Shown: positions 19,356-40,675 of the stretch, piece after piece
How the letters are laid out: each line of letters starts with the position of its first letter
Numbering within the stretch: the first letter of the stretch is position 1
Origin: Acidobacteria bacterium RIFCSPLOWO2_12_FULL_68_19
GTDB lineage: Bacteria; Acidobacteriota; Vicinamibacteria; Vicinamibacterales; UBA2999
NCBI GenBank assembly: GCA_001767525.1
Contig: MELF01000046.1
Location: forward strand, 22,811-86,810
Length of the DNA: 64,000 bases
Direction of reading: 5' to 3'
The notes under the pieces: generated by a model
Told to the model about the DNA's origin: nothing
Database searches by the model: none
The model's input: the letters and a program-made list of their open reading frames with translations, nothing else
Made by a program: the position numbers and the translations under genes

Positions 19356-19371
19356 GTGTCTGTTCCTCCTC

Positions 19372-19416
19372 GCCTCTCGACGGACGCTCGGGGTGCCCCG
19401 GGCGGCGCCGAAGGGC
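19372..19416. repeat. 45-nt REP-like palindrome (CCYTCGA...CGAAGGG family)
   Basis: gcctctcgacggacgctcggggtgccccgggcggcgccgaagggc; same layout as the 23706 and 39864 copies. Confidence 0.65.
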
Positions 19417-19579
19417 GTAACCTGTAGACCTGAAGTGGTTTACGCTGGTCGTCCAGCCCGTCATCCTAGCCCATCGGCACCCGTAGGGGCAACCGCCCGG
19501 CCCAGCCTGGCCGGGAGCCGTCGAATTTCGACGTTCGATTGCCCCCGCTGGCCGGGGTCGGTACTCTGAGGGCAGCAGC

Positions 19580-22691: not shown

Positions 22692-22783
22692 CCGACCTTA
22701 GGCGGGAAGTGCTGGATTTACTTGAGGATGCGTCCGTTCCGCCAACGCTTGCAGCTCGGCCGATCCGCTGCCGTGGAGCCAGT

Positions 22784-23032
22784 ATGGCGACCTGCCCGGA
22801 ATGTGAATTCGACGAGATCGATACGACCAACCGCGAGGAAGGCGATGAACTGAGCTGCCCCGAATGCGGTAAGAACCTCATACTTGCCGGTCCCGACGAC
22901 CTCGAAGTCGCCGACGACGACGAAGACGATCTCGACGACGACGACGAAGACGAGGATGAGGGCGAGGATCTCGAAGAAGACGAGGGCCTCTTCGACGACG
23001 AGGACGATTTCGAGGAAGAAGAGGAAGAGTGA
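22784..23032 (+). CDS. LysW-like zinc-ribbon protein with poly-acidic tail
   Basis: CPEC..EEGDELSCPECG, followed by about 40 residues that are mostly D/E; GGAG RBS. Confidence 0.75.
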   Translation: MATCPECEFDEIDTTNREEGDELSCPECGKNLILAGPDDLEVADDDEDDLDDDDEDEDEGEDLEEDEGLFDDEDDFEEEEEE

Positions 23033-23967
23033 CCGTTGCGGTCTGCAAGGTTCCTGAGGACGTACTGACCTCCCGCGAGAGGCGGCTGCGCGAAATCGTC
23101 GGTTCCTACGGGTCGGTTGTCGTGGCGTTCAGCGGCGGCGTCGACAGCGCCTATCTGGCATGGGCGGCGACGCAGGCGCTCGGATCCGCGGCGCTCTGCG
23201 TGACCGCCGACAGTCCCAGCTACCCCGATCACCACCGGCAGCTTGCGTTCGCCCTGGCGCGCGAGTTCGGCCTCCATCACGAGGTCATCCGTACCGCCGA
23301 GATCGAGCGTCCGGAGTACCGGGCGAATCCAGTCAACCGCTGCTACTACTGCAAGCAGGCGCTCTTCGCCGAGTTGACCCGGCTGGCCGCTGCGCGCGGT
23401 TTCGCGGTCGTCGCCGACGGCAACAACGCCGACGACAGGGGCGATTACCGCCCCGGACGCAGCGCGGCGCACGAGTTCGGCGTTCGCAGTCCGCTCGACG
23501 ACGCGGGCCTCACGAAGGCCGATATCCGAGAGCTGTCGCGCCGGGCGGGGCTGCCCACGTGGGACGAACCGGCCTCCGCATGTCTCTCGTCCCGCATTCC
23601 GTACAACTCCGAGGTCACCCCCGAGAAGCTGCGCATGATTGAGTGCGCCGAGACGGTGCTCCGCGATCTCGGTTTTCGCGTGTGCCGCGTGCGGCATCAC
23701 GAGATGCCCTTCGACGATCGCTCGCCCCTCGACGGTGCGCTGGGCGACCCTGAGCGCGCCGAAGGGTCAGGGCGCCCCGAGCGCGGTCGAGGGGCGCTCG
23801 CGCGGATCGAGATCGGCGGCGACGAGCTGGCGCGGGCCCTCGAGCCACAGGTCCGCGGGCGGATTGTCGAGGCGCTCCGGGCCATCGGGTACCGGCACGT
23901 CACGATCGATCTTCAGGGGTATAGGATGGGCAGCCTGAATGAAGGTGTCCGCCTCCGCCCGGCCTGA
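23029..23967 (+). CDS. larE: ATP-dependent sulfur transferase LarE (PP-loop) with 30-aa repeat-derived insertion
   Basis: AFSGGVDS, NRCYYCK, DGNNADD..RPG, SPL, ACLSSRIPY, RVRHH..ARIE, DLQGYRMGSLN. Confidence 0.9.
   Translation: MTVAVCKVPEDVLTSRERRLREIVGSYGSVVVAFSGGVDSAYLAWAATQALGSAALCVTADSPSYPDHHRQLAFALAREFGLHHEVIRTAEIERPEYRANPVNRCYYCKQALFAELTRLAAARGFAVVADGNNADDRGDYRPGRSAAHEFGVRSPLDDAGLTKADIRELSRRAGLPTWDEPASACLSSRIPYNSEVTPEKLRMIECAETVLRDLGFRVCRVRHHEMPFDDRSPLDGALGDPERAEGSGRPERGRGALARIEIGGDELARALEPQVRGRIVEALRAIGYRHVTIDLQGYRMGSLNEGVRLRPA
23706..23795. repeat. Two nested 45-nt REP-like palindromes inserted in frame in larE
   Basis: Outer gcccttcgacgatcgctc|agggcgccccgagcgcggtcgaggggc, inner 23724-23768; removing 90 nt restores RVRHHEMLARIE. 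Confidence 0.8.
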
Positions 23968-24044
23968 TCACGGGCCACAGAGGCACAGAAGCACAGAGTA
24001 TTCAAGATTCCTCCTCCGTGCCTCTGTGTCCCTGTGGCCCGTGA
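23968..24044. repeat. CACAGAG-family palindrome
   Basis: Perfect 13-bp terminal inverted repeat tcacgggccacag / ctgtggcccgtga; internal cacagag/ctctgtg units. Confidence 0.8.
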
Positions 24045-29490: not shown

Positions 29491-29568
29491 TGGGGTGAGT
29501 ATACCTTCAGGCCCCGGCTTCAGGACCGAGCCCATACCCCTCGACTTCGCTCGAGGAGCCCCGATGCC

Positions 29569-39072: not shown

Positions 39073-39864
39073 GTGTCCTTGGAAGAACTGCTGGCGTCGA
39101 TGCCGTCAGGGCATTCCGATGAAGCGCTCGCGCGACGGATCGACTTCACCCGCCTGCCCGCCCACGTCGCCATCATCATGGACGGCAACGGCCGCTGGGC
39201 CGCGCAGCGCCATCTGCCGCGCGTGGAGGGCCACCGGGCGGGCATCGACGCGGTGCGCGACACCGTCGAGACGGGCGCCCGCCTCGGCCTCGAGGTGCTG
39301 ACGCTCTACGCGTTCTCGGTCGAGAACTGGAAGCGACCGGCGTCCGAGATCAGCACGCTCATGCTCCTGCTCAAGCGGTATCTCCGCTCGGAGCTGAACA
39401 CGCTGCTGACCAACAACATCCGCTTCCGCGTGATCGGACGGATGGAGGATCTGGCCCCCGACATCCAGGGCGAGCTGAACACCGCGATCGAGCGGACCGC
39501 GCAGAGAAGCGGCATGCTCTTCAACGTGGCGCTGAACTATGGCGGGCGCGCGGAAATCGTCGACGCGGCGCGGCGCGCGATCGAGGCGGGCCTCCGTCCC
39601 GAAGCGCTCGACGAGGAACGCTTCGCGTCGTTCCTGTACACGGCCGGGCAGCCGGACCCGGATCTGCTGATCCGGACGAGCGGCGAGATGCGCGTGAGCA
39701 ACTACCTGCTGTGGCAGATCGCCTACGCCGAGATCTACGTGACCGAGACGCTCTGGCCCGATTTTCGCCGCCGGCACCTGCTCGAGGCGATCCTCGCCTT
39801 CCAGAAGCGCGAGCGCCGGTACGGCGGCATCACCCCGGCTCGGGCGGCCATCGGCGCAAAATGA
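39073..39864 (+). CDS. uppS: Undecaprenyl diphosphate synthase
   Basis: IIMDGNGRWA, YAFSVENW.R, NYGGR, IRTSGE.RVSN, RERRYG. Confidence 0.96.
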   Translation: MSLEELLASMPSGHSDEALARRIDFTRLPAHVAIIMDGNGRWAAQRHLPRVEGHRAGIDAVRDTVETGARLGLEVLTLYAFSVENWKRPASEISTLMLLLKRYLRSELNTLLTNNIRFRVIGRMEDLAPDIQGELNTAIERTAQRSGMLFNVALNYGGRAEIVDAARRAIEAGLRPEALDEERFASFLYTAGQPDPDLLIRTSGEMRVSNYLLWQIAYAEIYVTETLWPDFRRRHLLEAILAFQKRERRYGGITPARAAIGAK

Positions 39865-39908
39865 CCCTTCGATTCTCACTCAGGGTCATCCTGAGCGGAG
39901 TCGAAGGA
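39864..39908. repeat. 45-nt REP-like palindrome filling the uppS-cdsA spacer
   Basis: acccttcgattctcactcagggtcatcctgagcggagtcgaagga. Confidence 0.75.
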
Positions 39909-40675
39909 TGACCCGGCTCCTCAGCGGGGTGGGCCTCGGGGCCGGCGCGCTGGCGGCAATCCTCTTGCTCCCGCCGTTCGCGCTGCGGCTGCTCGCGTGT
40001 CTCGTGGCGGTCGTCGCCGCGCGGGAGTACCTCGGCGTGCTGCACCACGACGGGCGCCGCCCGCGAGCCCTCCCGGTGCTGCTGCTCGTCGTGTTGACGT
40101 GCTGGTGGATGTCGTCGCCCCTGCCGGGCGATCTCCTCGCGCTGCTGCTCGTCGGCCTCGTGTGGCTGGCGATCGAAGTGCTCTTCCACGGACTGACGGT
40201 CGACCGCGCGGCCGCGCGGTTCCTGGCGCTCTGGTACATCGGGATGCCCCTCGGGATGCTCGCCGCCGTCCAGGCGATCGGCGGCCGGATGGCGACGCTC
40301 CTGCTCGTCGCGGCCGTCGTGGTCAGCGACTCGGCGCAGTACTACACGGGACGGATGCTCGGCCGTCGGCCCCTCGCGCCGGCCATCAGCCCGAAGAAGA
40401 CGGTCGAAGGCGCCGTTGGCGGCGCGCTGTTCACGATGGTCTTCCTGGCGCTGGCGGGCCCGCGGGTGCTTCCGCCGGCCAGTGCGGTCTCGCTTGCGCT
40501 GCTCGGCCTGGCGATTGCCGCCCTCGGCATCTGCGGCGATCTGTTCGAGTCGCGCCTCAAACGGATTGCCGGCGTCAAGGACAGCGCCGCCCTGATCCCG
40601 GGACACGGCGGTATTCTCGACCGCATCGACGCCCTGCTGTTCGCGACGCCTGCGTTCTACCTGTACCTGGTGTGA
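39908..40675 (+). CDS. cdsA: Phosphatidate cytidylyltransferase
   Basis: SDSAQY..G, ISPKKTVEG, GDLFES..KR..GVKDS..IPGHGGILDRID. Confidence 0.93.
   Translation: MTRLLSGVGLGAGALAAILLLPPFALRLLACLVAVVAAREYLGVLHHDGRRPRALPVLLLVVLTCWWMSSPLPGDLLALLLVGLVWLAIEVLFHGLTVDRAAARFLALWYIGMPLGMLAAVQAIGGRMATLLLVAAVVVSDSAQYYTGRMLGRRPLAPAISPKKTVEGAVGGALFTMVFLALAGPRVLPPASAVSLALLGLAIAALGICGDLFESRLKRIAGVKDSAALIPGHGGILDRIDALLFATPAFYLYLV

Follow-up and report, generated by a model that had tools for sequence, protein, structure and literature searches.

Two nested copies of a probably mobile 45-nt palindromic repeat lie in frame within larE of a soil acidobacterium

Rickettsia palindromic elements (RPEs) are AT-rich repeats of about 100–150 bp carried by obligate intracellular alpha-proteobacteria, and they are reportedly found in frame in many unrelated genes, being translated there as an extra surface peptide. 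Doublets of repetitive extragenic palindromes (REPs) forming hairpins, or REPINs, are said to be mobilised by REP-associated tyrosine transposases (RAYTs). Insertion sequences of the IS200/IS605 family have subterminal hairpins, generate no true target duplication and recognise a short target by its pairing with bases inside the element. In the text available from Di Nocera et al. (2013, PMC3733652), the GTAG- and CGTC-tagged REP superfamilies are described as having stems of 5–13 bp and loops of 2–20 nt, as occurring mostly in inverted dimers and as reaching tens to hundreds of copies, unevenly distributed among species. In addition, Table 1 of that work lists intragenic units in both superfamilies, and the CGTC superfamily is presented there without a linked transposase. 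RPEs are mentioned in the available text of PMC3733652 and PMC10969869, and the single-strand transposition of IS608 and ISDra2, of the IS200/IS605 family, is treated in the available text of PMC6006769. The present work concerns a stretch of 64,000 nt (the window), corresponding to positions 22811–86810 of contig C46 of Acidobacteria bacterium RIFCSPLOWO2_12_FULL_68_19, whose genome (the source genome, G000) has 4.21 Mb in 52 contigs and a G+C content of 68%. In this window the gene larE, encoding a sulfur transferase, contains 90 nt that very probably represent a small mobile element, non-autonomous and of the REP, REPIN or RPE kind, present as two copies nested one inside the other and in frame with the gene.

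The larE insert (23706–23795) consists of one 45-nt repeat broken up by a second, inverted 45-nt copy (Table 1). A nested pair of 45-nt copies had been proposed in an earlier, sequence-only reading of the window, whose boundaries agree within 1–2 nt with the parse obtained from the anatomy of the family. The core of the outer copy (43 nt) is formed by 23707–23723 and 23769–23794, flanked by TG on the left and CG on the right, and the inner copy is positioned between its CTC and AGGG motifs. Since the TC at 23767–23768 repeats that at 23722–23723, the inner insert is 45 nt long. The covariance model identified the inner copy with 44.3 bits (E-value of 8.5e-9) on the minus strand and, as a consequence, this copy is inverted relative to the outer one. 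The nhmmer scores were 27.1 bits for the inner copy and 21.4 bits for the right half of the outer copy alone. When 23724–23768 was deleted in silico, the outer copy scored 39.0 bits along the whole length of the nhmmer profile, as well as the top copy of the genome (39.6). Likewise, the deletion of the whole 90 nt restores the LarE pattern, as had been claimed, with RVRHHEM directly joined to LARIE. With a loose pattern for half an element, the window yielded 5 matches versus 1.6 ± 1.2 in shuffled sequences, and 1 of 100 shuffles reached 5. This excess is by itself a poor argument against chance, and it is the genome-wide family, together with the empty sites in relatives, that carries the argument.

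Table 1. Coordinates of larE, its nested insert and the other repeat copies of the window.
Feature	Positions	Strand	Description
larE	23029–23967	+	ATP-dependent sulfur transferase LarE, 312 aa; frame intact including the 30 inserted codons
Outer copy, left part	23705–23723	+	Dinucleotide TG (23705–23706), then CCCT-TCGA-spacer-CTC
Inner copy	23724–23768	-	43-nt core (23724–23766) plus TC (23767–23768); inverted relative to the outer copy
Outer copy, right part	23769–23796	+	AGGG-CG-CCCC-GAG-spacer-TCGA-GGGG, then dinucleotide CG (23795–23796)
Stand-alone copy	19367–19419	+	nhmmer 30.9 bits; intergenic by frame and third-position G+C (GC3) analysis
Stand-alone copy, upstream of a plus-strand gene	39862–39916	+	nhmmer 34.3 bits; DNA fold z-score -3.2; spanning-frame analysis
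Possible half-copy, one hairpin only, weak	29535–29564		nhmmer 9.9 bits, E-value of 3.3

The core of the element has 43 nt (40–44 in other subfamilies) and follows the arrangement [CCCY]-TCGA-spacer-CTC-[RGGG]-NN-[CCCY]-GAG-spacer-TCGA-[RGGG]. When aligned in one orientation, 60 copies taken from many genomes have the consensus nnCGCCCT-TCGAC-nnn-GCTC-AGGGCG-CCCC-GAGC-nnn-GTCGA-GGGGCG. These copies were selected by a pattern in which TCGA, CTCRGG and CCYGAG are fixed, and they were oriented by their Y/R closing pairs. The two spacers are not mutually complementary. Each flank plus CCCY can pair with RGGG plus the centre (in the consensus, flank plus CCCT with AGGG plus the centre, and the centre plus CCCC with GGGG plus flank), giving two adjacent hairpins of 6 bp, with loops of 12–14 nt, which compete for the central dinucleotide. 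Under this two-hairpin model 97.8% of the cells of the alignment were paired, and changes on both sides of a pair were found in 58 cells versus 12 ± 2.7 after shuffling, none of the 500 shuffles reaching 58. Controls in which the model was slid along the alignment collapsed, and a separate pair count made on 68 copies agreed with this result. A single long hairpin displayed a covariation no better than that of the shuffles (363 of 500), and one mismatch (A-C) and one wobble (G-T) are fixed in it. The initial description of the element as a simple 45-nt palindrome was corrected in this way to two adjacent short hairpins with a common central dinucleotide. The compensatory changes by which a REP-type short stem-loop unit is recognised were found, and the element has a direction, the closing pair being T-A in one hairpin and C-G in the other.

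The two dinucleotides flanking the core are identical, and equal to the reverse complement of the central dinucleotide, in 55 of the 59 copies obtained by the wide scan and in all 37 copies from the related genomes G001–G003. The centre is CG, CA or TG, and rarely AG. Forty high-scoring copies from three genomes of the same genus were sought in the source genome; 27 of them had both flanks on one contig and 13 were aligned. Four of these 13 sites gave clean junctions (L313, L325, L318 and L294), another one (L321) fits with a substitution and eight were too diverged. Together with C17:94598 and the amidase gene described below, there are six clean empty sites, at which the dinucleotide is present exactly once and from which the filled sites differ by an additional 45 nt (42 nt at L318). 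Miniature inverted-repeat transposable elements are defined by terminal inverted repeats and a target-site duplication of fixed length. In the present element the arms are inverted repeats and the 2-nt direct repeat is single at the six empty sites, an appearance that a carried-over dinucleotide would produce identically. In larE the inner copy obeys the rule, with TC on both flanks. The outer copy has TG and CG around a CG centre and would match exactly had the preceding codon been ACG; several relatives have ACG at this codon, which suggests that it was also ACG here and later changed to ATG.

The nhmmer search, made in two rounds over the source genome, yielded 34 non-overlapping copies with E<0.05. 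The stand-alone copies that the first reading had placed at 19372 and 39864 were borne out, and the partial one at about 29536 is weak (Table 1). Intragenic copies were called from the open frames, the third-position G+C on both sides and Pfam matches. In-frame inserts of 45 nt were found in a DinG-like helicase gene, where G003 and G001 do not have it, and in an amidase gene, where the insert is common to the four genomes of the genus and missing from G007 and G005. A gene for an AddB-like PD-(D/E)XK nuclease has an in-frame insert of 42 nt, not present in G003 and G005, and ddl (D-Ala-D-Ala ligase) has 90 nt in frame inside Dala_Dala_lig_N, made up of two adjacent copies and not present in G002, G003 and G007. 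Another copy lies in a variable loop of an alpha/beta-hydrolase-like gene (C42:52763), corresponding to about 17 extra residues by protein alignment alone, and those of dnaE and kdsA are within the last codons. Inside genes the copies sit in both orientations, and 5 of the 40 copies sampled in G001–G003 look intragenic. This dispersed family, with in-frame copies in several genes, supports the claim of a mobile palindromic repeat inserting in frame into genes. The further suggestion that the element targets itself is favoured by the nested case and by the adjacent pairs in ddl and at C33:46523/46576, but no preference for the element was shown. A 42-nt insert in pheS, which same-genus genomes do not have, was rejected as a sure member of the family, with 16.1 bits and a central motif out of register. 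In ddl of G001 (L046) a 24-nt remnant resembling a half-element is found where the source genome has its two copies. This points either to an ancient insertion common to both genomes and followed by deletions or to more than one hit at the same place.

Searched with the covariance model (146 candidates scored per genome, strict filters, rough counts), 23 of 41 relatives, of the Vicinamibacterales, had copies of the element and 18 had none. The copy numbers were 30 in the source genome, 101, 75 and 22 in others of the same genus, and 96, 83 and 58 elsewhere; in one genome, G019, at least 11 copies have identical scores. A pattern scan of one genome per species gave at least 120 loci, and the record titles were seen for 80 of them. 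Among these 80 titled matches listed, most belong to metagenome-assembled genomes (MAGs) of Acidobacteriota or Vicinamibacterales, and 16, for instance those in Streptomyces, have no paired flanks and are chance-like. The full anatomy was also present, among the matches listed, in contigs labelled as Nitrospirota/Nitrospira, Daviesbacteria (about 40% G+C by its record name), Spechtbacterales, Peribacteraceae, a gammaproteobacterium and Bifidobacteriaceae, some of which may reflect mis-binned MAG contigs. As regards G019, each of eleven loci (L225–L235) has its copy in the middle of a composite repeat, about 125 nt in length, which opens with GTAGTGTCCGGCTTTAGCCGGAC and closes with GGCGGACACTACGTAC. 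The composite is probably a GTAG-tagged hairpin repeat and the element, moved or amplified together.

The length of the insert equals the TCGA-to-TCGA span plus 10 nt in 5 of the 6 copies compared, the larE inner copy requiring plus 11. In the wide scan, spans of 32, 33, 34, 35 and 36 nt were found in 15, 10, 12, 28 and 1 of 66 family-like matches, respectively, implying inserts of 42, 43, 44, 45 and 46 nt in the same numbers, so that 43 of the 66 would have 42 or 45 nt. The source genome has 7 copies with a span of 34 nt and 8 with one of 35 nt, a nearly equal share, and 45 nt is the common type in its genus. A length of 15 codons had been taken for a property of the family. This was not borne out, and whole-codon length was rejected as a family-wide feature, as the 43- and 44-nt types are common and the subfamily of the G019 burst has 44 nt. 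It is therefore a trait of some subfamilies, and within genes selection keeps only the inserts of 3n nucleotides.

The evidence for mobility consists of the presence/absence polymorphism in close relatives, the fixed insert length, the flanking signature and the bursts in copy number. A different explanation of the dispersed family is that the element is a functional motif selected by the host, such as a protein-binding site, a terminator or an RNA element, which was spread by recombination and whose genic copies are by-products. In its favour, the TCGA and CTC/GAG motifs of the loops hardly vary between genomes or even between phyla, which points to a conserved factor that recognises them. 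Moreover, none of the 40 Y1 transposase loci considered below has a copy of the element linked to it, and the amidase copy has stayed in frame throughout the genus, in its four genomes. However, within one family of genomes the element varies from absence (18 of 41 genomes) to about 100 copies, which argues against a general host function. The two orientations inside genes, the precise insert length of 42–45 nt with its exact flanking-dinucleotide signature and the identical copies of G019 also speak against it. Host selection of a motif is an improbable origin for these copies.

As regards the gene itself, the larE product gave 307.6 bits with NCBIfam TIGR00268 (cut-off of 150), which identifies it as a member of this equivalog family. 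The match comes as two stretches that break at residue 225, where the insert sits, and the solved structures of Lactiplantibacillus plantarum LarE align to residues 27–225 and 276–306. In an alignment of 18 LarE sequences the PP-loop motif SGGxDS (S35 G36 G37 V38 D39 S40) and residues C105, C108 and C185 are invariant. The AlphaFold2 model built from this alignment has a mean predicted local distance difference test (pLDDT) value of 79.5; strands 219–227 and 254–262 border the insert, and the 10-residue blocks spanning 231–250 average 52–53, that is, low confidence. The model therefore predicts that the insert prolongs the tip of a beta-hairpin belonging to the C-terminal region of LarE.

The gene larE is present in 40 of the 41 related genomes searched and, in most of them, the matches to residues 1–225 and 256–312 abut without a genomic gap. 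When the loci of 19 relatives were read at the site, 15 had an uninterrupted 42-nt stretch encoding CRVRHH..LAR.E and one (L018) had a single extra codon. The insert is absent from all three same-genus genomes (81–84% identity). The alignment of LarE with close relatives, which the sequence-only reading had proposed as a check, therefore places the two nested copies in the source genome and not in its congeners. Extra codons are nevertheless found at the same hairpin tip in three other genera, namely 15 in L002 (2131–2217, G020), 11 in L003 (2119–2193, G022) and 6 in L011 (2128–2187, G023). None of these inserts could be recognised as a copy of the element, that of L002 scoring highest with 6.4 bits (E-value of 2.3), and the three genomes hold 37, 4 and 20 element copies, respectively. 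The site thus tolerates insertions, either of other origin or of copies too decayed to be recognised. Such residues at the exact site could favour the view that the 30 residues of LarE are an ordinary lineage-specific loop expansion at a variable hairpin tip, with an incidental likeness to the repeat. However, both halves match the genome-wide profile with 27–39 bits, the element is also found at intergenic sites and in unrelated genes, and same-genus genomes are without the insert, all of which makes loop expansion very unlikely.

Logan contigs from 4 of 4 metagenome runs, belonging to 4 studies, span 23400 to at least 23903 with 0 differences, 0 gaps and no joints; one of these runs could come from the source sample itself, but the four cannot all do so. 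Although the genome is divided into 52 contigs and repeats are often misassembled, an assembly or chimera artefact, which the first reading had considered as a threat to its claim, is ruled out for practical purposes by these unchanged contigs and by the intact reading frame of larE.

The reading of the insert as two copies of a mobile element has also points against it. When single copies are folded as DNA, the structure of minimum energy is the long hairpin and not the two hairpins, and both folds may matter. The columns fixed by the selection pattern are not independent and, therefore, the covariation signal rests on the four other, freely varying pairs. At three sites (the larE outer copy, DinG and L321) the flank-centre rule fits only with one substitution, and at ten sites (C10, AddB and 8 of the 13 aligned) sequence divergence prevented the junction from being located. 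Moreover, the filled and empty sites fit both a target duplication and a carried-over dinucleotide. Only 2 copies of the source genome conform to the strict pattern, so that the family there looks old and decaying and its activity may have ceased; relatives hold many intact copies. The orientation relative to the local GC skew in the source genome (12 versus 8) showed no visible bias, with 52 contigs and crude orientation calls. Finally, none of 40 distinct Y1_Tnp loci (the 30 best of the order, that of the source genome and 9 from five high-copy genomes) had a copy of the element within about 1.5 kb on either side, and the mobilising enzyme was not found among them.

This last result also answers negatively the search for an associated RAYT that had been proposed at the outset, and an association with RAYTs was rejected for these loci. 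The source genome has one RAYT-like Y1 transposase, of 215 aa (G000:C5:36744-37079; L021 1219–1866, minus strand), whose hairpin flanks are different: perfect hairpins of the form GGGTCAGACCC n GGGTCTGACCC are found on both sides, and the counterpart in G002 has the same flanks. From this arrangement, the GGGTCAGACCC hairpins appear to be a separate REP family with its own RAYT.

If the larE insert consists of two mobile copies, a first 45-nt copy would have entered the beta-hairpin tip in the C-terminal part of LarE and a second one, in the opposite orientation, would later have entered the first. The gene would have stayed open because the two copies add a whole number of codons, 30 (45 + 45 nt), and are free of stops in that frame, and the predicted extra peptide would be carried as a floppy surface loop. 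The element may move via a structured single-strand or mini-circle intermediate, with entry restricted to dinucleotides matching the one at its centre. The logic of this entry would be like that of the guide-to-target pairing of IS200/IS605-type HUH enzymes, or like that of a serine recombinase matching its crossover dinucleotide, and the mobilising enzyme would act in trans. As a tentative proposal, with more chances of being wrong than right, the element could be a minimal single-strand or mini-circle transposon with its central dinucleotide as a two-base guide and a broad-host-range enzyme provided in trans. Were the two-base guide true, the centre would both pick the target and set the cleavage at the right end, by base pairing or by crossover-dinucleotide match, and the constant agreement of flank, centre and flank would be explained. 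A trans-acting enzyme of broad host range would account for the copies in genomes of Nitrospirota and of low-GC candidate phyla. Under the guide reading, the 42- and 45-nt subfamilies would prosper in part because a whole-codon length lets copies survive inside genes.

In-frame palindromes of this kind show selfish DNA adding loops to essential proteins without destroying them. The genes hit include those of a cofactor-maturation enzyme, a cell-wall ligase and DNA-repair enzymes, and the amidase copy has been retained through the whole life of the genus. The element provides a compact and countable system of 45 nt, in which filled and empty sites bear a clear signature and close relatives differ in copy number between 0 and about 100, in an abundant yet little-studied group of soil bacteria. 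The flank-centre-flank agreement is a direct and testable clue to the mechanism of insertion. There is also an effect on annotation, as these repeats yield spurious peptides and split domain matches, as in the break of the LarE model at residue 225.

Other features were observed near the copies. Upstream of larE, a small open frame (22709–23032 of the window, plus strand) ends where larE starts and encodes a CPEC...CPEC motif resembling a zinc ribbon and, after it, a long acidic tail of D and E residues. Just past the larE stop, and overlapping the next open frame (start at 23939), a second and unrelated palindromic repeat is located at 23964–24040, its arms containing CACAGAGGCACAGA / TCTGTGCCTCTGTG-like words. 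The summed contig depth of the four metagenome runs was about 15–380 over 23967–24000 versus 4–12 on larE, and many contigs matched the 23964–24040 stretch alone, so this repeat must be very abundant in these communities. Another dispersed repeat family adjoins the C8:46975 copy (G000:C8:47110-47245; L269, about 435–570), and this segment alone matched dozens of places in G001–G003 with 75–97% identity.

The comparison with the known systems places the element close to several of them. In-frame mobile palindromic repeats are an already known phenomenon; what appears to be new is this family, together with the dinucleotide rule that it follows, the Rfam library lying outside the comparison. No description of the family or of the rule was found in the literature searched, subscription journals being outside that search, nor anything relevant on the peptide words encoded by the element. 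With respect to RPEs, the likeness is the presence in frame in unrelated genes (larE, those of the DinG-like helicase, the amidase and the AddB-like nuclease, and ddl). The differences are a length of 42–45 nt, a GC-rich composition and free-living soil Acidobacteriota as hosts, so that the two are set apart by length and description, not by sequence comparison. With respect to the IS200/IS605 family, the resemblance is one of logic alone and not of membership; the recognised sequence would be of 2 nt and common to both ends, no linked enzyme was found at the 40 Y1 loci, and no strand bias was seen in the source genome. As in REPINs, two inverted REP-like units can fold into one long hairpin and constitute a non-autonomous unit of movement, but the element has 45 nt in total and showed no association with RAYTs (0 of 40 loci). 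The likeness to the GTAG and CGTC superfamilies, as described in the available text of PMC3733652, comprises the stem-loop units (6-bp stem and 12–14-nt loop), their inverted dimers, the uneven copy number and the intragenic copies, to which the lack of a linked transposase is added for the CGTC REPs. Unlike them, the consensus of the 60 oriented copies bears no GTAG or CGTC tag at either end, the GTAG of G019 being about 35 nt from the element, inside the longer composite repeat. In addition, the two units overlap at their common central dinucleotide and the flanks follow a complementarity rule, which was not met with in the available text of that work. The element fits the general description of a REP dimer, without the defining tags or the RAYT link.

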